NCBI GenBank assembly: GCA_963664405.1
Contig: OY761158.1
Coordinates: 2,784,001 to 2,848,000, forward strand
From: Thermoanaerobaculia bacterium
Lineage (GTDB): Bacteria > Acidobacteriota > Thermoanaerobaculia > Multivoradales > Multivoraceae
Reading direction: 5' to 3'
Length of the DNA stretch: 64,000 nt
Of this stretch, positions 2,687 through 61,043 are shown in pieces. Within the stretch, counting starts at the first letter, position 1. Each line of letters begins with the position of its first letter. A program made the translations under genes and the position numbers. The notes beneath the pieces are model-generated. The model saw only the letters and a list, made by a program, of their open reading frames with translations, was not told where the DNA came from and did not search any database.

Positions 2687-3729
2687 CGAACCCACCCATC
2701 AAAAGCTCACAATACGGCGAGCCACCGAATGACGACGAGGTCGCAAGGCTGATCCGCATGGCCGGACGGCCCGCGGTGCCACCTCTTGACGATATGACCG
2801 CGATCAAAGCCGCGGGGCGAGCGGAGTTCCGGCGGCGCTGGGTCCGCAAGCGCTAGCCCAGCCGAGTTACGATCTCGCTGGCGCTCGCCGCAGCTTTGGG
2901 TTTCGCGGCGCTGGGACTCATTCTGTGGCGGAGCACCCCCGAGGTAGCCCCCTTCCCGGCCGCTAGGGTGGCGTCGGTGGAGGTAGTGGAGGGAGACGTT
3001 ACTCTGCTTCGTAGCGGGGGGGCCTCCGGCACTTGGGCTCTGGAGCCTGAGGGTGTCGTTGTCGCCGGCGACCGTATCGAAACCGCGCCTTCAGCGGGTC
3101 ACACTGCTCTACTCATGGACGACGGAGTCTCCTTGCGGCTCGACGGCGGAGCCCGAGTCGTATTTGTCGATGCCGACACGGTCGATCTCGTTGAAGGGGC
3201 TCTGTATGTGGACGCTGCGCCGTCAGCCGAGGTTGCTTCCGTGCTGCGTATTCGCACACCTCTGGGTGTGGTGCAGCACGTGGGCACCCAGTTCGAGGTG
3301 CGTTTCACCGAAGGGGAAGAAGGGAGCTTGCGCGTTCGGGTACGAGAAGGTCGTGTTCTCGTTGCCCGAGAAGATCAGACCCTCTCTCTCGAGTCCGGCG
3401 AAGAGCTTGCGGTGGCCGACGATGGGGCCGTTGTCCGCGGCGAGATTTCGACCCACGGTGCCGCCTGGGACTGGGTCTTGGAAACGGCGCCGCCCTTCGA
3501 GATCGAGGGCCAGTCGCTGCAAGTCTACCTAGACTGGTTGGCTCGGGAGACAGGCTGGGAGATCGTGCTCGCCGAAGGCGCGCTCGACAGGCCGACCGAT
3601 GAGGTCATGATGGCCGGTCCGGTTCTCCACGTTCGACCCGACGAAACGCTCAAAGTTGTATTGCCTGGTGTGGACCTCGCCCATCGCTTCGTCGAGGGTC
3701 GCCTGATCCTCGAGCATCTGATCCCCTAG
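2683..3729 (+). pseudogene. FecR-family anti-sigma factor with an in-frame TAG at 2854-2856
   Basis: ATG overlaps the sigma stop (ATGA). The frame is continuous with the 2896..3729 ORF except for TAG at codon 58. FecR motifs TPLGVVQHVGTQFEV and VRVREGRV. Confidence 0.75.
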
Positions 3730-3892
3730 TGCCGTGTCTCCGACATGGCTTACCAATATCTCGGCCCCTTTAGCCCGCTGCCGTCGTCGCGACTCGTCGA
3801 CATATTCCCAATATGCCTGCCTCGTCGCTCCTTGACAGCGAACAAAATGGCCTCGAGCTCTTGGCAAGCCATGTCGGAGACACAACACCTAG
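3726..3892. mobile_element. CTAG-bounded palindromic element (MITE-like), subfamily A
   Basis: CTAG at 3726 and 3889; arms TGTCTCCGACATGGCTT / AAGCCATGTCGGAGACA; core TCGACATATTCCCAATATGCCTGC shared with the other copies. Confidence 0.85.
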
Positions 3893-7326: not shown

Positions 7327-7725
7327 CTAGGTGAATCTCGCAACCAAGAGGGAGAAATCGTCTTCGAAAACGTCCTCCCGCATGACGTTCCGCACTGCCT
7401 GCTCGATCCGCTCAGGCTCACCGCTCTCCAACGCCGGGCCCGCGACCACCAGGTCGAGGAATTCGTCCATGCTCCACTCTTCGCCCGCTGTAGTCACGAC
7501 CTCGAAGGCTCCGTCGCTGTACACATACAAGCGGCTGCTGGGCTCGACAGTGATTTCGGCATCTTCGAAACTGAGATCTTCCATCAATCCGATCGCCATG
7601 TTGGGAGTACGCAGTCTCTGGTTCGATTTCTCACTCAGGAGCAGAGCCGAGGGGTGGCCGGCAGACGCGTAGAGGAGCTTACGGTCGCTCGAGTCGAAGA
7701 TGCCGTACCAGAGGGTGAAGTACAT
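7327..7725 (-). pseudogene. 3' part of FHA-SpoIIE (PP2C) phosphatase, separated by IS insertion
   Basis: MYFTLWYGIFD..YASAGHP..YSDG..EDDFSLL, which continues the 9670..10371 fragment. Confidence 0.9.
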
Positions 7726-7803
7726 CTTGGGTTCAAGGGGTCGTCGCAACGTTGCCTTGGTGAGCAGAGTGTACAAACTCATCGAAGACTTCGGCAGGGG
7801 TTC
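7726..7803 (-). mobile_element. Extra IS30-family right-end fragment (78 bp)
   Basis: Near-identical to 8218-8295 (3 mismatches); CAT at 7723-7725 matches CAT at 9670-9672. Confidence 0.85.
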
Positions 7804-8217
7804 TGAGCGGTCACGGTTTCGTGGACACCAAGTTAAGCCCCATCGGGGCAGTTCCTATTCTGCATCAGTTCGGGTAGTCAGCTTCGGACGAGGCTGTGCG
7901 AGGTTCGGGGAGCGCAGCCTCCCTTCGGATCCGACCGCCGGTCGCGCGTGAGTTCACGCTGCCCCTTCGAAGGCCTCGGGGCTCAGGAATCCGAGCGTCG
8001 AATGCTGGCGTCTCAGGTTGTAGAACACTTCGAGGTAAGAAACCGCTTCGTCGTGAGCTCGCTGACGAGTCTCGAAGGGTCGGTCCCAGACCTCGGTCTT
8101 GAGACTGTCGAAGAAGCTCTCCAAGACCGCATTGTCATAACAATTTCCGACGCCGGACATGCTGCAGCGAAACCGCAGCTCAGCCAGCCGATCCTGGTAA
8201 GCCTTCGAGGCGTACTG
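7804..8217 (-). mobile_element. IS3-family remnant (right end and C-terminal integrase core)
   Basis: Terminal TGAGCGGTCACGGTTTCGTGGACAC; peptide QYAS..SMSGVGNCYDNAVLESFFDSLKTE..FYN..RQHSTLG..SP. Confidence 0.9.
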
Positions 8218-9669
8218 CTTGGGTTCAAGGAGTCGTCGCAGCGTTGCCTTGGTGAGCAGAGTGTACAAGCTCATCGAAGACTTCGGCAGGGGTTCTCCAG
8301 CCGAGGGTCTTGCGGGGTCGGCCGTTGAGTGCGAGCGCGACCGCGGCGAGGTCGTCGCAGGAGTATCTGACAAGGTCGGTGCCCTTCGGGAAGTACTGGC
8401 GTAGTAGTCCGTTGGTGTTCTCGTTGGTGCCCCGCTGCCAGGGGCTGTGCGGGTCGCAGAAGTAGATCGCGAGGCCGGTATCGACGCGGAGTTGAGCGTG
8501 TTGAGCCATCTCGGCGCCCTGGTCCCAGGTCAAGGACCGGCGGAGCTGCTCGGGCAGCGTGGTGATTGACACCGCGATCGCGTCACGGACGGCTTCGGCG
8601 CCGTGCCCGGCGAGGGCCGGCCCGTTCTTCACCCTCGATTCGGTCCCGTGCCCTTCCATGCGGGGCAGGTGCAGCAGCATCGTGAACCGCGTAGTGCGTT
8701 CGACGAGGGTCCCGATCGCTGAGCTCTCGAGCCCGACGATCAGGTCGCCTTCCCAGTGACCCGGCACGGCCCTGTCGCCGGCTTCGGCGGGGCGTTCGCT
8801 GATCATGATCTCCGGAGTTACAAATTTCTTGCCTCTCCCCCGGGTTCGCGCATGCGGCACTCGTAGCGCTCGCCCGGTTCGCAGGCACGCGACGAGCTCG
8901 CGTTTGAGGGCTCCTCGACCTTGGATGTAGAGCGCTTGGTAGATCGCCTCGTGAGAGATCCGCATCGACTCATTATGGGGGAAATCAATCCGAAGCCGGT
9001 TCGAGATCTGCTCCGGACTCCAGGATTTCGCCCAACGCCGATCCTGGCGACGGCCGTGCCGACGGCCGATCCAACGCACATCCGGACCCGGCACCAGCTC
9101 CCCGTCAGGCCTTGCGATCACGCCGGCGAGGCGGTTCTGCACGTACTCACGCAAGGCATCGTTCGCGGCAAGCTTGGAGACCTTCGGACGGCTGGCGCGC
9201 CGCTCCGCGTGCCACTGCGCAGTCGTGGCCCGATAAGTTACGGCACGGCTGCGAGTCGCCGCGTTGCGGCGCAGCTCCCGCGAAATCGTCGACGGTGAAC
9301 GACCCAGGCGGCGAGCGATCTCACGTACCCCAACATGCTGAGCGTGAAGGATGGCGATCTCTTCACGCTCGGCGAACGACAGATAACGCCCCGACACCGG
9401 AGCCAACGAGATAGGTCGCATTCCACCAGCTTGCCTGAACCATCTCGACCCGACAGCCGGCGACACCCCAGCCTCTGTTGCGGCGTCCTCGCTGGACGCC
9501 CCACGAGCGATCGTCTCCCAGAACCGGATCCGGTCCTCGCGCCGCGCTGTCGAGGGCCGGCCAGGTGACCGCATCTGGCCACGCATCGCTCGAATCGCAC
9601 CCTGACACTTGCCAACTCCCATCGAAACACCTCCATCACGAGATGTTGCGACGACCAGTTGAATCCGCC
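8218..9669 (-). mobile_element. IS30-family insertion sequence
   Basis: Imperfect IRs CTTGGGTTCAAGGAGTCGTCGCA / GGCGGATTCAACTGGTCGTCGCA enclosing the transposase. Confidence 0.92.
8225..9622 (-). CDS. IS30-family transposase
   Basis: HTH (LSFAEREEI..RSPSTISRELRRN), WSPEQIS, PGHWEGDL, TWDQGAEM, HSPWQRGTNENTNGLLRQYFPKG; GGAGG RBS before ATG 9622. Confidence 0.95.
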   Translation of the reverse strand: MGVGKCQGAIRAMRGQMRSPGRPSTARREDRIRFWETIARGASSEDAATEAGVSPAVGSRWFRQAGGMRPISLAPVSGRYLSFAEREEIAILHAQHVGVREIARRLGRSPSTISRELRRNAATRSRAVTYRATTAQWHAERRASRPKVSKLAANDALREYVQNRLAGVIARPDGELVPGPDVRWIGRRHGRRQDRRWAKSWSPEQISNRLRIDFPHNESMRISHEAIYQALYIQGRGALKRELVACLRTGRALRVPHARTRGRGKKFVTPEIMISERPAEAGDRAVPGHWEGDLIVGLESSAIGTLVERTTRFTMLLHLPRMEGHGTESRVKNGPALAGHGAEAVRDAIAVSITTLPEQLRRSLTWDQGAEMAQHAQLRVDTGLAIYFCDPHSPWQRGTNENTNGLLRQYFPKGTDLVRYSCDDLAAVALALNGRPRKTLGWRTPAEVFDELVHSAHQGNAATTP

Positions 9670-10371
9670 CATGTTGCCATGGTCTTCCATCCGGAAAGAT
9701 CGATTGAGAGCGGCAAGCACGTCGGCCGGCTTGGAGAAATCGACTCCTGGCAGGGCTTGCTTGGACAGGAGGTTCAGCACCGCCACCGAGTGCAAGGCTG
9801 GAGCTGTGCCGTGGCCGGAAACATCCACGAGATAGATAGCGAACTTCTCGTCGGTGATCCAGTGATACCCGAAGGCGTCGCCTCCGAGCTTGTCCGAAGG
9901 AATGAAACGCCATTCGGTCGTCACCCTATCGGTCTTCAGAGGAGCTGGCAGCAGAGAGCGAACGTACCTCGAGGCCTTGTCGAGATCGCCGGCTAAGCGC
10001 TCCTCTTCTTCGACTTCGCTCTTATTTCGATACTCGTGTTTGAAGAGCGAGTTGCCGACCTGGACCATCGAGCCCACGGCGACCACCTGTGGCTCCTCGA
10101 CGGACTCTTCGTCGACGAAAGTTCCGTTGCTCGAGCCGAGGTCCTCTACGACGAGTTGTCCGACGATCACGCTCAGGCGGCAATGCCTCCCGGAGGTTGC
10201 CGGGTCTTGGATCAAGATGTCGGCCCCCTCCTTGCGCCCGACCGTGATTGCCGTGGATGGGAGCTCGATCCTCTTGCCGGACATCGGCCCCTCGACAGCA
10301 AGCAGATAGTGTCTACGGTCGCGCGACGAAACAGTCTGACGCTGAGCGACGATGGTCTTGTCGAATTCCAT
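9670..10371 (-). pseudogene. 5' part of FHA-SpoIIE (PP2C) phosphatase
   Basis: FHA (VGR..SGRH..DLGSSNGTFV) plus SpoIIE start (LGGDAFG..DVSGHG); truncated at the IS end. Confidence 0.9.
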
Positions 10372-11595: not shown

Positions 11596-13808
11596 TCACC
11601 GTGCCGGCTGGAGCTCAGCAAGGGCCTCATACTCTTTTGCCTTCGATTCTTTGTCCCAGGCGCGATAGAGAGCGATGATTCGCGCCAGCGAGTCTCGCGC
11701 GGCTGCCGAGCTTGCGCCGCGCTCTTCCTTGATCTTCGGGTACGCCTCGACCAGGAGAGGTTCCGCTTCGTCGAAGTCTCCGGTTGCCGTCAGACTCTGG
11801 CCGAGAACGCTCATAGCCACTGCGACTCTCCAGTGATCCGCGGTAGCCCCGCGGCGAGGATTCGGCTCGCCTCCCTTGCATGAGACTGTGCCTCGCAGCC
11901 TCGTCCAGCGCGAGCAGGCTACGCGCGAGGTTGTAGAGGACGAGGCCGACGACCACATGGTCCGGGCCCACGGTGCGCTGGTTCATCGCCAGGGTCTCTC
12001 GGAAGAGGACTTCGGCCTCACCGTGCTTGCCGCTGCTAGCGAGGACCGAGGCCAGATTGTGAAGGCTCCTGGCCAGGGACGGGTGCTCTCCGCTGAAAAC
12101 CTCGCGATATAGAGGAATGAGCTCCCGGAACACCGCTTCGGCTCCCTCCAGGTCGCCCCCCGCGAGGAGAACGCTGCCCAGACTGTTGAGGCTGTTTGCG
12201 GTCTCGGGGTGCTGGTCACCGAGCTTGTGACGCCGGGTCTCGAGGGCGCTGCGTAGCAGCGGCTCCGCGGCCGCGGAGTCTCCTCGTGACTGCAGAGTCA
12301 ACGCCAAGGAGCTTTGAGATGCCGCGACCAGGAGATTGTCCGCGCCGAGCAGATCGAGGCGCATGCGTAGAACCTCGCGATATAGGCCTTCGGCGGTTTC
12401 GTTGTCACCCTTGTTGCTAGCCGCGGTCGCGAGGCCGGCGATCGCTTCGGCGACATCCAGGTGCTCGTTCCCCAAGAGCTTTCGGCGCATCTCCAGCGCT
12501 TCACGGAAGAGCGACTCGGCGATGTCGAACTCGCCACGGTCGGTGTGCACCCAGGCGAGCTCGTAAAGGATGTCGGCTACCTTCGGGTGCTCCGCCCCCG
12601 CGAGCTCGCGCTGCATTCGTAGAGCGTTGCGGTCAAGTTCTTCCGCCTCGTCGAGATCATTGGTCAACCGCAGCAGTCGCCCGAGATGGGAGAGGCTCGC
12701 CGCTGTGTCCTGGTGGTCTGCGCTTAGGGTGTCAGTGCGTAACTCGAGACCTTGGCGTAAGAGAGGCTCTGCCTCCTCGTAACGGCCTAGCTTCAGATAG
12801 GTCAGGCCTATGGTGTCTTCGACGGCCGCGCGAATCTCTGGTTGATCGGGAAACGAGCCTTCGATCTTTCCGACGGCTTCTTCCAGGGCCTCGAGCACCG
12901 TGACTTCCCGTCCCAGGCTTTGATAGGGGTCCGGTGAGCCGAGGACTTCTTGAAGAAAGTCGTTGATGGCCGTTGCCTTCGCGGCCTCGGCCTCGGCAAC
13001 TCTCTCGGCGCTGCGGGCGCGGAGGAGGCCGACTGTCGTGCCACCGATCGCGACAAGGGTGGCGATTGCGACCAGGCCGGCGCCGGCTACCGCCACCCGG
13101 TGTCTCTTGATGAACTTCTGTATGCGGTAGGTGGTGCTCGGCGGCCCCGCAAGAACTGGCTCATCGCGAAGGTGTCGGACGACATCCGCCGCCAGCTCGT
13201 CGGGAGAGCCGTAGCGTCGACGTCGATCCTTCTCGAGCGCCTTCATCGTGATCCAGTCGAGGTCACCTCGAAGCTGACGTCGCAGCGTCGAGGGCTCGGT
13301 TCGGCGTTTGCGGGCCGACTCCGCTGAGGAGTCGCCATCAGACGCTCTGTGTCGCAGAAATCGTTGATGGGGATGCCGGGGACATACTCCATAACAAAAT
13401 AGGGCCGGCCTTCGGGCGTTGCTCCGCCATCGAAGACTCTGGCGATCGCGGGGTGGTCCATCAGGGCCAGAGCTTGGCGCTCCGCCTCGAAGCGCGCCAC
13501 GACCTCCCGGGTATCCATGCCCCACTTCACGAACTTGATCGCACCTGGCGTCGGACCGGCTCGCGCTGCTCGGCTCGATATACGGTGCCCATGCCGCCCT
13601 CGCCAATGGCCTCGAGCAGCCGATAACGACCCATATCCCGCGGCGGCCCGTCGGTGGGGTCTGTCGCTTGATCTGGCTCTGCGAACTGGGTCGCCTCGGT
13701 GGCCGGACTCTCGCCGAGTCGGAGCGAGCAGACCGGACAGACCTTCAACCCTGAGGCAAAGAGGTGCAGCTCAGCGTCGCACTCGGAACAGCGCTCCTCT
13801 TCGGACAT
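11596..13808 (-). pseudogene. Ser/Thr protein kinase-TM-TPR gene, frameshifted and with the kinase core deleted
   Basis: Pieces in different frames: [33 protein letters not shown], then a jump to [16 protein letters not shown] and TPR repeats; HRD/DFG segments absent. Confidence 0.85.
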
Positions 13809-16038: not shown

Positions 16039-16204
16039 CTAGACCAGCGTTTCCACAGTTCGCGCACATATCTCGGCCCCTTCTGTCCGCTGGCGGCGTT
16101 TCGCCTCCTCGACATATTGCCCAATATGCCTGCGTCGGCGCGCCTGGCCAGCGAACAGAATGAGCTCGAGCTATTGCACACGAACTTTGGAAACGCTGGT
16201 CTAG
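16039..16204. mobile_element. CTAG-bounded palindromic element, subfamily B copy 1
   Basis: CTAGACCAGCGTTTCC...GGAAACGCTGGTCTAG; 166 bp; 2 differences from the reverse copy at 24100. Confidence 0.9.
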
Positions 16205-16324: not shown

Positions 16325-16492
16325 CTAGTGGACGGTAACACTCGAACGTTTAGTGGCTGAGTGAGTCATTCGTGGTCGAGATCAAGGCGCGCTGACGCAG
16401 GCATATCGGGGACTATGTCGAGGAAGCGTAACGCAGAGATCGGCCGCGAGGGCCGCTCAGGCGCTAATCGTTTGGGTGTTACGGCCCACTAG
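16325..16492. mobile_element. CTAG-bounded palindromic element, subfamily C copy 1
   Basis: CTAGTGGACGGTAACAC...GTGTTACGGCCCACTAG; 168 bp; about 6 differences from the reverse copy at 42110. Confidence 0.9.
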
Positions 16493-21072: not shown

Positions 21073-21375
21073 TCAGCCGCGGTCCCGCCGCGCCGCCAGC
21101 TGATTGTAGATCCAGGCTACACACCAGCCCATGCAGGCGCCGACGAGGCCGCCGTAGACCAGGCCCAGGACAGAGCCTCGCCAAGACACTGAGTAGCCGG
21201 GGAAGTAATTGTGCAGAAGGGAGAGGTGCTCTCCAACGCTAACGCCTCCGCGCAGGACCAGCCATGCTGTGGCCACGAACAGTCCGATCCCGAATACCAT
21301 CGAGAAGACCACTGCCATGATCCCAGCCCGCAGACGCGCGACGGCGGCTGCGATCAGCTCAGTCTCTTCGTTCAT
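21073..21375 (-). CDS. Small 2-TM membrane protein, paralogous to the C-terminal domain of the upstream oxidoreductase
   Basis: GLFVATAWLVLRGG..VGEHLSLLHNYFPGYSVSWRG; ATG overlaps the upstream stop. Confidence 0.8.
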   Translation of the reverse strand: MNEETELIAAAVARLRAGIMAVVFSMVFGIGLFVATAWLVLRGGVSVGEHLSLLHNYFPGYSVSWRGSVLGLVYGGLVGACMGWCVAWIYNQLAARRDRG

Positions 21376-23187
21376 TCGTCGCCGCTCTCGAACAATTCCA
21401 GGGCTCCGGTCGCCTCGAGTCCCCTTCGCAGGCTCGCTTCATGCCATCCCACCTGGACATTGATCGCTTTGGCGAGGACCCAGCCGAGCCCGAAACCGCC
21501 GATGCCGGCTTCGGCGGCCCCGATGACCGCGCCCTGCCAGGAAGCGTTGAAGCCAACCAGGTAGTTCCCGAGCAAGGATAGGTTCATACCGACTCTCGAG
21601 CCTCCTTTCAGTAGGAGGAGCGCGGTGGCAAGGAAGAGGCCAGGGGCACCTGTCGCGCCGATGGCACCGCCCAGGGCCACGGGATCGTAGCGCGCGAAGG
21701 CCGACCTCATCAGCTCGTCTACTGGGGCCGCATTCACCGTTCCGGGAGTTGCCCGATCTCCCGCCCCGGTGGCGGATTGGCTCGCCTCTTCGTGGTAGTC
21801 ACTGTCGACGTTGACTGCCCACACATCATGGCTGGCGCCGGCTATGTTGCGAGCGGCGAGGATGCCGGTCAGCATCGAGTGGTCCTGGTTGTTGTATCGG
21901 TGCTGGCCGTTGCGACCGACGGTTTGAAGATTCTCGAAGGTTTCGATGAACGAGCGCAGAGTCTTCAGCGCCTCTTGGTAGCCCTCATCGTAAACCGGGT
22001 AGGCCTTGGGCACTCGGATTACGACACCGTCCAGCACTTCTCCGCTGTCGAGCAGGCCGAGTTTCACACACTCTCGCTCGCCCAGCTCGATCAGGTCGCT
22101 GTCCTCCGATTCCCACAGAGAGTCTCCCTGCTGCACGAAGTACTCTAGCCCCAGGCTCGTTTTCTCGGAGTCCGGGACCATATCGGGACTCCAGTTCTTG
22201 AAGTTCTGGATCCTGCCCATCTTCACCTCCGGGGCATGGATGTAGATCCAATTGTCGGGAAAGATATTGGGCCGATCAACGATGAGGCCGACCGTCATGA
22301 AGTCTCGATATCGAAGGCTTCGTGCTGCGGCCATGACCTCCGGCGGCGGGGGCGGATCTAGAGCAAAGAGGAGGCTGCTGATCGGCATCGACGAGATGAC
22401 GTGCTCCGGCCGTAGGCTTTGCCCGTCGCCGTTGCTGCCCCTCCACCTCGATGCCGACGATGCGGCGGTTGTCGTGCTCGATCCTGCATACCTCGGAACG
22501 CAAGTGTGTCTCGATGCCCTGCTCTGCCAGCCGGTCGCGGCAACGCTCCCACATCATGCCGGGTCCGTGGCGCGGGTAGTGGAAGCTATCGATGAGCGTA
22601 GTGACCACTTCGCCCTTCTTCGAGGCTTGGCCCAGGAGAGCGTTTCGGAGCGCAGTCGCGAGATCGAGGTTCTTGATTCTTTGGCTCGCCCACTCGGCGC
22701 CGATCTCGCTGCACGGGATGCCCCACACCTTCTCGGTGTAGGTCTCGAAGAAGATCTCGAACAGTCTTCTGCCGAAACGGTTGACAACCCATTGTTCGAA
22801 GTTCGTCTCGGCGGTTGGGAAGAGCCGCGCCGCAAGGTAGCTGGCGCCGATTCGCGTGGCCTCCACGGGGCCAAGCCCGGTCAGAGCGTTCAGGGGGCGG
22901 AGGGGATAGTCGAAGAAGTGGTTCTGATAGAAGATCCGTGAAAGGCGGGGCCTTTCGAGGAGATCTTCACCCAGGAGTTCTTCCCAGACTTGGCGGACCA
23001 GCTCGACTTTGGTGAAGAAGCGATGCCCCCCCAGGTCAAAGCGATACCCCTGGTAGTGAACCGTGCGGGAGATTCCACCCACGACCGGGTCTTTCTCCAG
23101 CACGATAGCCGGAAGGTCGAGCTTCGCTAGCTCCCAAGCCGCAGTCAAGCCTGCGGGCCCTGCTCCGATGACTGCCGTACGATTCAT
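21372..23187 (-). CDS. NAD(P)/FAD-dependent oxidoreductase (protoporphyrinogen-oxidase/UGM-like superfamily) with C-terminal membrane domain; +1 frameshift near 22440
   Basis: GAGPAGL, FDLGGHRFFTK, YTEKVWG, WIYIH, GRNGQHRYNNQDHSM; removing one G from a G4 run joins the two ORFs. Confidence 0.85.
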
Positions 23188-23194
23188 GGCTCCC

Positions 23195-25146
23195 CTAGCA
23201 CTGAGGTTCGGTCTCCTGGTCCGAGCTTGTTGGCCGATACCCTTCCCGTTCGCGTAGCACGACCACGTCTCCGCCTCCGAGTGTTCCATGGAAGCGCTTG
23301 GCCGTTTCGAAGCTTGCCAGCAGTTCTGTCCACATCTGCGGGTCGTTGGCTTTGAGGTGCCCACCAAAGTGAGGATGACCCAGGTCGTACCGGCGGCTGA
23401 AAGATGGGCTTGGAGCGCCTCGACCGACGAAGCCCCTGCCATCCCGGGGGCGTAGAGAGCTCTGTAGACCGAAAGCGCCATCCCCACGGCGACCGATCGG
23501 ATCCTCGGGAGCCTTCTGCGCGAGAACCCAGTCTCGCGCTCCGGTGAAGTCCTGCTTTGGACTGCGGTAGTTGCGAGGCAGGGCCAAGGCCGACAGCAGG
23601 ATCAGGGCAAGGACGAATATGGCTCCCAGATTCTGCCTAGCTCCACGAAGTCGATCGCCGAGGTCGTCTCCCAAGAGTCGCGTACCCACGACTACGAAGA
23701 GGGCGGCGAAGCCGAGCTCGTTGAAGAAGAAGCGGGGCCACAAGTTTCTCTCGAGTAGAGCCAATGTGCTCCCACCAAGAACGGCGGGAAGGACGAAGCA
23801 CCAAGTGGCAACCGGTGTCCGTCGCCATAAGCTTCTGGTGCCTATGAGCAAGACCAGCGCGGCCGCGATCAGCCCGGTCCAGCCCAGTACCGACCCGATC
23901 GCGAGTCCACGCACGGTTTCCGCTAGCGCCCAAAGGGGGCTCTTCCACTCTTCAGGTCCGGTGCCGGCGCCGGCGGATGGTTGGGTGTAGAAGGCGAGGA
24001 CCTGGGGAAGGACCAGGGCGTAGAGCTGCAGCGTCAGCGTTGTGGCAAGAAGGAAGCCGACCCCTGGGCGCCATCGCAGAGTAGAGCCACTCTGCCGCAC
24101 TAGACCAGCGTTTCCAAAGTTCGTGTGCAATAGCTCGAGGTCATTCTGTTCGCTGGCCAGGCGCGCCGACGCAGGCATATTGGGCAATATGTCGAGGAGG
24201 CGAAACGCCGCCAGCGGACAGAAGGGGCCGAGATATGTGCGCGAACTTTGGAAACGCTGGTCTAGCAGCGTGGCCACTACCAGAAAGTGGGCGGTCACAA
24301 CGAAGACCATGCTCAGATGGAGACCCATGCCCACCGCGACGACTCCCGAGTAGCCGATCCAGGTGGACCAGCGACCCTGCCACAGCCCCCGCAGCAGCAG
24401 GTCGGTTGCCAGCACAGTAGCGAAGAGGAGTCCGGTGTAGCCGCGGGCGTTTGAGAGAACCATACGTGGTGGTAGGACACGGCGAGCAGAGCGACGACCA
24501 GAATCGTGTCGCGCTGACTCGTGACGAGAGAGGCGAGACGCTGTGTTGCCCACAGGCTGGCAACGCCGAAGACGACTGCGGGAAGGCGCAGTGCGGCGGC
24601 GCTCTCTCCAAATGCGGAGACGCTGAGGTGCCCGAAGACCGAGTAGAGGAGGTGGTTGTTGTCATCCGTATAGCGGGTGAGGATCTGCCCTAGGGAGGGC
24701 CGTACGAACTTCACCAAGGTGGAGACTTCGTCGATCCACAGATCCTGGTGGATACCGATCCAGCGCAGCACGAGCGCTAGAGCCAGAAGGCCTACCAAGG
24801 CGAGCGGGTAGCCCCTGCTGGGGGCAACTACCGTCTTGGTTGTGGGCGGTTGCCACAGAGAGTCCTCCGGACCGAGGACGGGCGCTTCACCTGCCCTTGG
24901 CCGCCAGACTGCAGCCACGAGCCAAAGGCCGTGAAAGAGGAGTAGCGCCTTGAAGAGCTTCGCGCCAACCTGCAGCTGCTCGAAGCGGGGGCCCGGATCA
25001 GGCTCCAGCCTAAGGATGACAGAGACCGGTAAGAGCACAGCCATCAAGACCAGGCTCGCGCCCAGGCCGAGACTAAGCGCTCGATCTCTCTTCGCCGCCT
25101 GGAGTGAGGGTCTGTGATGGTGGCGGGCCAAGGGTGATAGCTGCAC
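23195..25146 (-). CDS. GT39/ArnT-like membrane glycosyltransferase (GT-C) with three 1-nt indels and an in-frame palindromic insertion
   Basis: LWIDE, NNHLLYS, FGES..ALRLPAVVFG, HVWFSQ(N)ARGY, WPRFF; indels near 24451, 23497 and 23367. Confidence 0.8.
24100..24265. mobile_element. CTAG-bounded palindromic element, subfamily B copy 2 (in-frame, intragenic)
   Basis: Reverse complement of 16039-16204; net +162 nt read as LDQRFQSS...NAGL in the host frame. Confidence 0.92.
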
Positions 25147-42109: not shown

Positions 42110-42277
42110 CTAGTGGACCGTAACACCCAGACGTTGAGCGCCTGAGCGGCCCTCGCGGCCGATCTCTGCGTTACGCTTCCTCGACATAGTCCCCGATATG
42201 CCTGCGTCAGCGCGCCTTGATCTCGACCACGAATGACTCACTCAGCCACTAAACGTTCGAGTGTTACGGTCCACGAG
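42110..42277. mobile_element. CTAG-bounded palindromic element, subfamily C copy 2
   Basis: Reverse complement of 16325-16492; right end degenerate (CGAG); lies between divergent genes. Confidence 0.9.
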
Positions 42278-56360: not shown

Positions 56361-57503
56361 ATGAAGGCCATCCTCATCACTACCACCGAGTTCTCGCCCT
56401 TCCGAGCCGGGATTGGCACCTACACATGCGAGATCGCTGCCGCGGCTCAGGCGCTGGGAGGCGCGGTGACGGTCTTCGCGCCGAGCTACGGGACCGACCC
56501 GGCGGATTCGGACCGACTGCGCTACCCCTTCGAGGTCATTCGTTACCCCGGTGAGACTTACGATCGGCGGGCTCTTCCGGGCCTGCTCCTCCGGCTTTGG
56601 CGAGTGGTTGGTGAAAGGCCCTGGGACCTGATCCACGCGGTCGACTGGCCGACCGTCCTGGCGCTGGGCCTGATCCGCCGACTGCGGCCGCTGGAGTACC
56701 GAGCCACGGTCTATGGCTCGGAGCTTCTCGGGGTCGTCGACTCGCTGCACGTGCGCATACTTGCCGGAGGGCGTCTCTTTGCCGCCTGCGAACGGGTGCT
56801 GGCTATCAGCGACTTCACCTCCGACCTCCTCAGCCGGCGCTGTCCTTTCGTCCAGCCCGAGAAGGTCGCGATCACACCCCTCGGCGTAGCGGAGCGTTTC
56901 TTCGAGCCGCCGGATGCGGCCGCCCGGTCGGCTGTGACGAAGCGGCTCTCGATACCTGACGACCGCCAGGTGCTGCTCACGGTGGCACGGCTGGTGCCTC
57001 GCAAGGGTCACCGAGTGGCCTTGAAGGCGCTTCGCCTGCTCCCCGGCGACGTCAAACAAGGTCTCGTCTACGTTATTGCTGGGCGGGGGGATCCTGTCTA
57101 TGAGGAAGAGCTGCGCCGACTGGCGGCCGAGACCGAGGTGCGTGTGATCTTCGCCGGCGCTGTCGGCGATGCCGAATTGGTCGCCCTCTACGGCGTTGCC
57201 GACATCTTCCTCTTACCCGGAGAGCCAGACCCCAAGAGTGTGGAGGGCTTCGGGCTGGTCTACCTCGAGGCCGCGGCGCAAGGAACGCCGGCGGTGGCTT
57301 CGCGCTTGGGTGCCATTCCCGAGGTAGTGCGCCATCAGGAAACCGGACTACTGGTCGAAGCTTGCGACCACGAGGGCTTGGCGGCGGCGCTTGCAGATCT
57401 GCTGAATCACCCGACTCGGCTCGCCGGCATGGGCGCCGCGGCACGCGAACGGGCCCGGGACTACACCTGGGAGCGATGTGCGCGCCTGAGCTATGAGCTC
57501 TGA
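56361..57503 (+). CDS. Glycosyltransferase family 4 (copy 1)
   Basis: EF.P..GI.TY, LTVARL.PRKG, EGFGLVYLEAAAQG. Confidence 0.93.
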   Translation: MKAILITTTEFSPFRAGIGTYTCEIAAAAQALGGAVTVFAPSYGTDPADSDRLRYPFEVIRYPGETYDRRALPGLLLRLWRVVGERPWDLIHAVDWPTVLALGLIRRLRPLEYRATVYGSELLGVVDSLHVRILAGGRLFAACERVLAISDFTSDLLSRRCPFVQPEKVAITPLGVAERFFEPPDAAARSAVTKRLSIPDDRQVLLTVARLVPRKGHRVALKALRLLPGDVKQGLVYVIAGRGDPVYEEELRRLAAETEVRVIFAGAVGDAELVALYGVADIFLLPGEPDPKSVEGFGLVYLEAAAQGTPAVASRLGAIPEVVRHQETGLLVEACDHEGLAAALADLLNHPTRLAGMGAAARERARDYTWERCARLSYEL

Positions 57504-59900: not shown

Positions 59901-61043
59901 ATGAAGGCGATCCTCATCACCACCACCGAGTTCTCGCCCTACCGAGGAGGAATCGGTACTTACACCTACGAGATCGCTGCCGCGGCTCAGGCGCTGGGAG
60001 GCGCGGTGACGGTCTTCGCGCCGAGCTACGGGACCGACCCGGCGGATTCGGACCGACTGCGCTACCCCTTCGAGGTCATTCGTTACCCCGGTGAGACTTA
60101 CGATCGGCGGGCTCTTCCGGGCCTGCTCCTCCGGCTTTGGCGAGTGGTTGGTGAAAGGCCCTGGGATCTGATCCACGCGGTCGACTGGCCGACCGTCCTG
60201 GCGCTGGGCCTGATCCGCCGACTGCGGCCGCTGGAGTACCGAGCCACGGTCTATGGCTCGGAGCTTCTCGGGGTCGTCGACTCGCTGCACGTGCGCATAC
60301 TTGCCGGAGGGCGTCTCTTTGCCGCCTGCGAACGGGTGCTGGCTATCAGCGACTTCACCTCCGACCTCCTCAGCCGGCGCTGTCCTTTCGTCCAGCCCGA
60401 GAAGGTCGCGATCACACCCCTCGGCGTAGCGGAGCGTTTCTTCGAGCCGCCGGATGCGGCCGCCCGGTCGGCTGTGACGAAGCGGCTCTCGATACCTGAC
60501 CACCGCCAGGTGCTGCTCACGGTTGCACGGCTGGAGCCTCGCAAGGGTCACCGAGTGGCATTGAAGGCGCTTCGCCTGCTCCCCGGCGACGTCAAACAAG
60601 GTCTCGTCTACGTTATTGCTGGGCGGGGGGATCCTGTCCATGAGGAAGAGCTGAGCCGACTGGCGGCCGAGACCGAGGTGCGTGTGATCTTCGCCGGCGC
60701 TGTCGGCGATGCCGAATTGGTCGCCCTCTACGGCGTTGCCGACCTCTTCCTCTTACCCGGAGAGCCAGACCCCAAGAGTGTGGAGGGCTTCGGGCTGGTC
60801 TACTTGGAGGCAGCGGCGCAAGGAACGCCAGCAGTGGCTTCGCGGTTGGGTGCCATTCCTGAGGTAGTGCGCCATCAGGAGAGCGGCGTTCTGGTCGAAC
60901 CATGCGATCACGAGGGATTGGCGATGGTGCTGGCAGATCTTTTGCGGGACCCGGGGCAGCTCGAGAGTCTGGGCACCCTAGGTCGTGAACGGGCTCGGGA
61001 TTACACCTGGGAGAGATGTGCCCGTTTGACCTATGACCTCTGA
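59901..61043 (+). CDS. Glycosyltransferase family 4 (copy 2, near-identical to 56361..57503)
   Basis: Same length (1143 bp), offset 3540; central part nearly identical. Confidence 0.93.
   Translation: MKAILITTTEFSPYRGGIGTYTYEIAAAAQALGGAVTVFAPSYGTDPADSDRLRYPFEVIRYPGETYDRRALPGLLLRLWRVVGERPWDLIHAVDWPTVLALGLIRRLRPLEYRATVYGSELLGVVDSLHVRILAGGRLFAACERVLAISDFTSDLLSRRCPFVQPEKVAITPLGVAERFFEPPDAAARSAVTKRLSIPDHRQVLLTVARLEPRKGHRVALKALRLLPGDVKQGLVYVIAGRGDPVHEEELSRLAAETEVRVIFAGAVGDAELVALYGVADLFLLPGEPDPKSVEGFGLVYLEAAAQGTPAVASRLGAIPEVVRHQESGVLVEPCDHEGLAMVLADLLRDPGQLESLGTLGRERARDYTWERCARLTYDL

Follow-up and report, generated by a model that had tools for sequence, protein, structure and literature searches.

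A likely IS630-type MITE inserted in frame into a membrane glycosyltransferase gene of a Thermoanaerobaculia bacterium

Elements of the IS630 family insert at TA dinucleotides, which they duplicate (2-bp target site duplication), and IS630 itself favours a TA located within CTAG, according to passages of two reports (PMC2170065, PMC2577343). A number of bacterial MITEs are associated with this family, including RUP of Streptococcus pneumoniae, ERIC/MITEEc1, MITEPlu5 and Correia/NEMIS. These repeats are 100-200 bp in length, possess terminal inverted repeats with TA at the ends, form a long hairpin and lack a transposase, and the ends of RUP are IS630-like (features of RUP, ERIC/MITEEc1 and NEMIS as given in parts of PMC2229807 and PMC6267812). 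A passage of PMC11602168 puts approximately 90% of prokaryotic MITEs between genes. NEMIS-107 and ERIC also form in-frame fusions (a section of PMC2229807), and such fusions are reviewed for several repeats in a portion of PMC3184786.

Rickettsia RPE insertions are hairpin repeats found in frame within unrelated protein genes, as well as between genes (portions of PMC10969869, PMC2229807 and PMC1779305). Other short structured repeats are the BRE of Bordetella, which sometimes lie within ORFs (part of PMC3110155), and the CIR of Caulobacter, which are described in an extract of PMC2229807 as two-armed repeats of about 110 bp with exposed GANTC that are not intragenic. Here, we describe a palindromic element that resides in frame in a glycosyltransferase gene of a Thermoanaerobaculia bacterium (Acidobacteriota; assembly GCA_963664405.1, contig OY761158.1), discuss how it came to lie in frame and compare it with these systems. 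The window is the whole stretch of 64,000 nucleotides analysed, and all coordinates refer to it.

The element comprises 166 nt (24100-24265), carries CTAG at either end and is bounded by a perfect 24-nt terminal inverted repeat, formed by an arm at 24100..24123 on the plus strand and its inverted copy at 24242..24265 on the minus strand. It folds into a single long stem with a predicted RNA free energy of -88.6 kcal/mol (z -9.8; none of 200 shuffles as good), and a core of approximately 50 nt with a central hairpin occupies 24157..24208 on the minus strand. The net gain to the host gene is 162 nt, and the minus-strand host frame crosses the element (24101..24265) without a stop, in 55 codons that start and end with Leu and add net 54 residues. 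An initial annotation of this DNA had reported a palindrome of this net length that is stop-free in the host frame, and had found its subfamily, here termed B, open in three of the four frames that its own terminal TAG does not close; recomputation returned the same peptide and the same frames. Given the perfect arms, this copy is apparently very young and has been little tried by selection either way.

Five copies of the family, and no more, are detected in the window with nhmmer. A sister B copy (16039..16204; 164/166 positions identical, opposite orientation) lies between convergent LysM/SLT and YfhO-like genes. Two copies belong to subfamily A: one (16325..16492; net 164) has stops in all six frames and is located between genes just past the YfhO-like stop, and the other (42110..42277), with CGAG at one end, lies between divergent Mur-ligase and DUF1573 genes. 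A subfamily C copy (3726..3892; net 163) has other arms around the same core, and its two CTAGs provide the TAG stops for a FecR gene and a TonB-receptor gene that converge on it. The empty site under this copy was apparently a single CTAG in which both genes had their stop. By site, one window copy is in a gene, one on stop codons and three between genes; one of the two B copies is in a gene. The arms differ between A, B and C copies, and the central core is shared. The 99% identical sister copy and the three more distant ones identify the element as a repeat that is dispersed, multicopy and recently spread, with related copies in several other genomes. CTAG is depleted across the window (97 found, approximately 221 expected by base composition), which limits the available targets.

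The initial annotation named no mobilising mechanism; a candidate emerged from arm identity with an IS630-family insertion sequence. Scanning GTDB genomes with a 20-nt arm pattern yielded at least 30 loci, and among the matches listed the arm is identical in 24/24 positions to one end of a 1284-bp, CTAG-bounded insertion sequence (L029, 3001-4284; also L010). The matching end is the one adjoining the transposase 3' end. The ORF of this insertion sequence scores 205 and 211 bits against NF033545 (cut-off 100) and contains DDE_3 and HTH domains, and its relatives on rhizobial plasmids are annotated as IS630 and likewise bounded by CTAG. Unlike the element, the insertion sequence codes for a transposase, lacks the core, lies in an alphaproteobacterial MAG and has two unlike ends, one of which the element carries twice. 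The element is short, lacks a transposase and has terminal inverted repeats, as expected of a MITE, and it matches the IS630-family element at one end, the other end of the insertion sequence being different. We thus consider it likely that the element is a non-autonomous IS630/Tc1-mariner-type MITE, in which a conserved hairpin core lies between two copies of the same IS630 end; this degree of confidence applies to the preferred explanation as a whole, i.e., an IS630-type MITE, landing in CTA phase, purging of in-gene copies and a tolerated passenger peptide. The window contains no IS630 transposase, and no contig of its genome is among the at least 30 arm-pattern loci listed. An IS30-family transposase (NF033563) is present at 8225-9913; its surroundings include a split FHA/PP2C-like gene and a direct repeat of 85 nt (7720-7804 and 8212-8296).

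The IS630 link also bears on the target. The initial annotation regarded the whole CTAG as duplicated, but the duplicated target is probably the TA inside it. Since the arm is identical to an IS630 end and IS630 targets TA, each CTAG can be read as C, TA and the first base of the element. On this parsing the subfamily B MITE proper would span 24103..24262 (160 bp, G...C), flanked by TA copies at 24101..24102 (within CTAG 24100-24103) and 24263..24264 (within CTAG 24262-24265); the net length (160+2 bp) is unaffected. TA stands in a CTAG context at both ends of the element, and L004 is the sole related element that separates a TA from a CTAG duplication: its far end reads C-TA-T, as expected for a duplication of 2 bp rather than 4 bp, in this one case. 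At the DNA level, the host site was not encountered in an empty state. A transposase supplied in trans would accordingly insert the element at the TA of a CTAG, duplicate the TA and add 162 bp; in the window's genome, both the TA duplication and the mobilisation in trans are deduced from these matches.

Among the described repeats, the element appears to be a new member of the IS630-associated bacterial MITEs, with which it shares the size class, the terminal inverted repeats, the long hairpin, the terminal TA and the lack of a transposase. It differs from RUP, ERIC and NEMIS in its sequence, in the strict CTAG context of its known copies and in carrying one end of the insertion sequence twice. 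RUP has stops in all six frames, as stated in a passage of PMC2229807, whereas subfamily B is open in CTA phase. The BRE are short, structured and sometimes intragenic as well, yet they are betaproteobacterial repeats of about 90 nt with T-run ends, and the first three sequences of the PMC3110155 supplement bear no resemblance to the element by eye. In contrast to the two-armed CIR, compared by description only, the element folds as one long stem. A literature search retrieved no description of this MITE family, with ISfinder, bioRxiv supplements and collections of viral and metagenomic contigs outside its scope.

The host gene (23195..25146, minus strand, start approximate) falls into four frame segments. 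It is not one intact ORF in this assembly: tblastn frames place single-base frameshifts near 24452, 23493 and 23368. Its identification as a GT-C glycosyltransferase holds: the product resembles PMT_2/GT39 membrane enzymes, is multi-pass and has a WIDE motif, with the DE after the first helix. PF13231 scores below its cut-off on the N part of the broken host (E 6e-5), above it in the closest homolog (P0002), and is carried by most of the best 120 of 624 homologs. Foldseek with a model of half the host protein returned nothing significant; the GT-C enzymes AftA, PglB and ALG3 appear only among the weak matches. Elsewhere in the window, two glycosyltransferase genes (56361-57503 and 59901-61043) are near-identical duplicates 3.5 kb apart, 96% identical over the first 300 nt.

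Alignment to the 119 other members of the best 120 of 624 homologs bears out the predicted 54-residue indel at a loop. Between flanking anchors the host has 98 residues, or 44 without the insert, and the homologs most often have 45 (61/119); all others but one span 42-59 residues. The exception, P0090, has 90 owing to about 45 residues of unrelated, tandem repeat-like sequence inserted into this loop, which suggests that the loop repeatedly accepts repeat-derived sequence. In an AF2 model of the in-frame middle segment (314 aa, 108 sequences) the flanking helices reach a pLDDT above 90 and most of the insert 45-51. The initial annotation placed the insert right after a TM helix; it lies in that vicinity but starts within the last helix turn (the predicted helix covers residues 48-71 of the folded segment and the insert begins at 64), a few residues ahead of the natural loop. 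From the charge pattern and the usual topology of GT-C enzymes, the loop would lie on the cytoplasmic side, away from the conserved outer-face motifs. The filled site is among the 14% of host positions that vary most in length, whereas two of the other CTAG sites of the gene lie in regions of nearly invariant length. The insertion thus sits in a tolerant, length-variable loop of a gene that, on the preferred explanation, would still be translated.

The in-frame state itself is apparently the default for this element, and what seems rare is the in-gene location. Within a gene, CTAG can only be read as CTA-G (Leu) or NCT-AG, the third phase being a stop. In the window 88 CTAGs are empty: by trimmed gene calls, 48 are in genes in CTA phase, 7 in genes in the other phase, 7 are stops and 26 lie outside genes. 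Hence, 48 of the 55 empty in-gene sites are in CTA-Leu phase, and since subfamily B is open there whichever way it inserts (one of its two rare-phase frames is closed), in-frame landing is nearly automatic. Computed from these site and frame counts, about 94% of in-gene B landings would be in frame and stop-free. The mechanism we propose runs as follows. The genome is GC-rich, nearly all of its in-gene CTAGs would be a CTA Leu codon followed by G, and almost any in-gene landing of subfamily B would yield a 54-residue in-frame insert. Most in-gene insertions would apparently be purged, those that survive would lie in length-variable loops, linkers and tails, or in dispensable genes, and the inserted peptide would be a tolerated passenger devoid of function.

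Further insertions of the peptide, for which the initial annotation had proposed a search, were sought in protein sets, and the two CTA-phase peptides match six and three proteins. P0125, a PIN-domain protein, has a clean internal in-frame insertion, and P0132, an HExxH peptidase-like protein, has one near its end in the opposite orientation; both are encoded on a contig of 6,780,313 nt, the size of the window's own. In P0129, an FAD monooxygenase from another contig, the in-frame insert splits a conserved stretch between two domains. The ORFs of these three cases are whole. P0130, P0131 and P0133 were rejected as clean insertions, as they lack a domain or their frame is broken ahead of the element. 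phmmer with the peptide against 1.84 billion representatives returned eight matches, comprising one real host (P0125), six ORFs that are short or apparently spurious, and P0126, an unrelated repeat protein that was dropped. The searches of this large collection, and with them the count of in-gene copies, cover the two CTA-phase frames; for the third open frame, the ESM Atlas gave no usable match. A PDB search for P0125 found nothing, and the PIN insertion site thus lacks structural support as a tolerant one.

Two B copies in 64 kb extrapolate to roughly 25-750 per genome and to some 14-400 expected neutral insertions into genes in CTA phase. Three in-gene B insertions were found, a comparison that stems from one window and from word-indexed searches of limited sensitivity; within these bounds, it suggests that in-gene copies are purged. 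In genome CAJQNK, which carries a net-163 family, the element occupies the TAG of an evident gene at 6 of 16 loci; at another, where the second flank is missing, an ORF upstream continues into it, and the remaining loci lie between genes or are unclear. These sites were judged by eye, and the codon model could not tell sense from antisense frames at the junctions. Copies at L002 (3360-3525) and L007 (3001-3167) immediately precede genes whose reading frame extends without a stop across the element, and gene callers may add false N-terminal extensions there.

Two readings compete with the proposed explanation on the nature of the locus. The same MITE may have entered a pseudogene that was already decaying, in which case the in-frame state would be incidental and no peptide made. 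The host has three single-base frameshifts within about 1.9 kb, the adjacent gene has one and a kinase gene several, whereas approximately 20 long genes (including atpA/D/G) are intact, a distribution too clustered for uniform read error; moreover, the host departs from 9-10 of 100 conserved columns (the tenth departure is a trimming artefact; median 4; 6 of 93 homologs have 10 or more), and the perfect arms mark a young insertion. Yet each of the four characterised indels, in the host and the adjacent gene, adds or removes a single base at a run of two to four identical bases, the pattern of long-read consensus error, and the host has neither a nonsense codon nor a large deletion, keeps the catalytic-type DE motif and retains most conserved residues. 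Prior decay would also leave the other in-frame cases, with whole ORFs, unexplained. The breaks at short base runs and the lack of nonsense codons favour local read error, which we regard as the somewhat more probable origin of the frameshifts; a pseudogene that preceded the insertion is a possibility to be taken seriously, if the less probable one. Clusters of single-base frameshifts are observed in a Ser/Thr kinase-TPR gene (11600-13750), an FAD oxidoreductase gene (21372-23190) and the host (23195-25146); the frame HMM was over-fitted and served as a pointer only. The strong hairpin and the conserved core would also suit a palindrome of the REP/REPIN or IS200/IS605 type, mobilised by a tyrosine transposase, or an RNA element that is spliced out. 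This is very improbable, given that the ends match a DDE element of the IS630 family and CTAG is present at both ends instead of a tetranucleotide on one side, that Rfam gives no match anywhere in the window and that an open frame makes splicing needless.

Two further alternatives concern selection, and the preferred explanation of a tolerated MITE is compatible with one of them. With over half of the targets in genes, 162-bp lineages might be selected at the level of the element to remain a multiple of three and open in CTA phase, thereby avoiding harm; this would add to the preferred explanation rather than exclude it. None of the four diverged 162-bp elements has a stop in either CTA-phase frame (chance 0.05-0.08 each): their 8 CTA-phase reads are stop-free, and the remaining 16 reads contain 11 interior stops. 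Under random substitution starting from L002B, the two frames both stay open with P 0.14 for L019 (34 differences) and P 0.054 for L002C (51 differences). Two compensating indels separate B from its variant, and the net length is 162 in both. On the other hand, the elements are related and the counts not independent (about seven separate stop events; estimated P ~0.06), the simulation takes no account of hairpin constraints, and spread is also seen for families whose net length is 163 (one genome has at least 16 loci), 164 or 119, A with stops in all frames. A structural constraint may keep the length near 163 plus or minus 1, and the openness of three of four frames in the copy at 24100-24265 has P ~0.09 upon shuffling of the interior. 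Openness as a selected trait, the coding tolerance proposed by the initial annotation, is therefore suggestive only: the open CTA-phase frames of the 162-bp elements speak for it, the spread of the net-163 and net-164 families against it, and we regard such selection as rather unlikely. Any selection of this kind would act to do less harm and not for a useful peptide, since conservation follows base pairing, variants read different peptides and no family model matches. That the peptide is a functional module, domesticated and kept by selection in several proteins, is most improbable. The same frame does occur in three unrelated proteins (P0001, P0125 and P0129), but that frame served as the query; over its first half the P0125 variant encodes a different peptide (62% identity), and P0132 is read from the opposite strand. 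Furthermore, the pLDDT of the insert is low, Pfam and NCBIfam have no match to the peptide, none of the 119 host homologs shares the insert, and conservation tracks base pairing, with double-sided changes in 25 of 44 predicted pairs. No support was found for a useful peptide, and the suggestion that the element is a source of new protein sequence is not upheld: in-gene copies are a small minority, the insert has a pLDDT of ~50 and is very young, and the host is possibly a pseudogene.

Relatives of the element extend beyond this genome. Among the matches listed, full-length relatives occur in an Acidobacteriota MAG (90% identity, alongside a 97.5% identical C copy), in a Vicinamibacteria MAG (83%) and in an unclassified MAG (~73%, at least 16 loci), and the same arm surrounds unrelated interiors in a Thermoanaerobaculia MAG and in Alphaproteobacteria. 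In the alphaproteobacterial loci L003, L004, L006, L009, L017, L020, L021 and L027 the IS630 arm flanks unrelated, hairpin-rich interiors of ~200-220 bp; L006 harbours tandem arrays of such elements, and the interiors of L023 and L025 are short and of different kinds again. The core of ~50 nt, which also recurs in the diverged L007 family, is found with five arm types, namely B, A, C, a fourth in L013 and a fifth on the Undibacterium plasmid NZ_AP018442.1 (L034:277-395), where it forms part of a short, TA-flanked element with quite different arms (nhmmer E 0.0015). The fourth arm type (L013:2832-2997) stands in tandem with a B-arm element via a shared CTAG. Judged from these combinations, arms and core look exchangeable, and families of net 119, 163 and 164 bp exist beside those of 162. 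Searches with the element found no match in phage records and a single core-only match (E 0.5) in plasmids; the A and C copies of the window gave short, weak plasmid matches only, and tblastn with the peptide gave one plasmid match, a chance one at E 8. It is a speculative and rather doubtful extension that these elements constitute a widespread, as yet undescribed MITE group with one conserved hairpin core and exchangeable IS630-type ends, whose CTAG-targeting lineages evolved the 162-bp length and stop-free CTA-phase frames that let them persist after insertion into genes.

The likeness to Rickettsia RPE insertions, drawn by the initial annotation, stands as a description, as in-frame copies are found in unrelated genes, and it fails as a link in sequence. 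The host, P0125, P0129 and P0132 each contain a hairpin in frame, at 162 bp slightly longer than the 100-150 bp of RPE. NCBIfam contains RPE models; at the protein level, three frames of the element were compared with NCBIfam, up to E 5, and two with Pfam, and none of them matches a family. Without a profile match the element is not filed as an RPE, even though it would work like one. In R. conorii, RPE-1 is reported within genes in about 19 of 44 cases, compared with one of the five window copies, and some RPE inserts are reported to be old and shared across species, whereas the in-gene copies described here look rare and young. For RPE, a protein-level test exists for Gmk. The target duplication of RPE is listed as unknown in a section of PMC2229807, in contrast to the IS630 link of the present element.

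In-frame insertions of MITEs are already documented, and a single such event is not surprising. The analysis offers a simple account of them: the CTAG target sets the codon phase, mostly CTA-Leu, and an element whose length is a multiple of three, with two open frames, would be silent at the level of the reading frame in most of its in-gene landings. Such elements also create spurious ORFs, to which most of the database matches reported here correspond, and break short-read assemblies. With the IS630 link, a candidate transposase family can be named, an item that portions of the reviews list as missing for RPE-type elements, and mobilisation becomes testable. If a group with one core and exchangeable ends does exist, it would represent an active analogue of RPE with an identifiable transposase, in which the in-frame insertion of palindromes could be reconstituted and selection on it measured.
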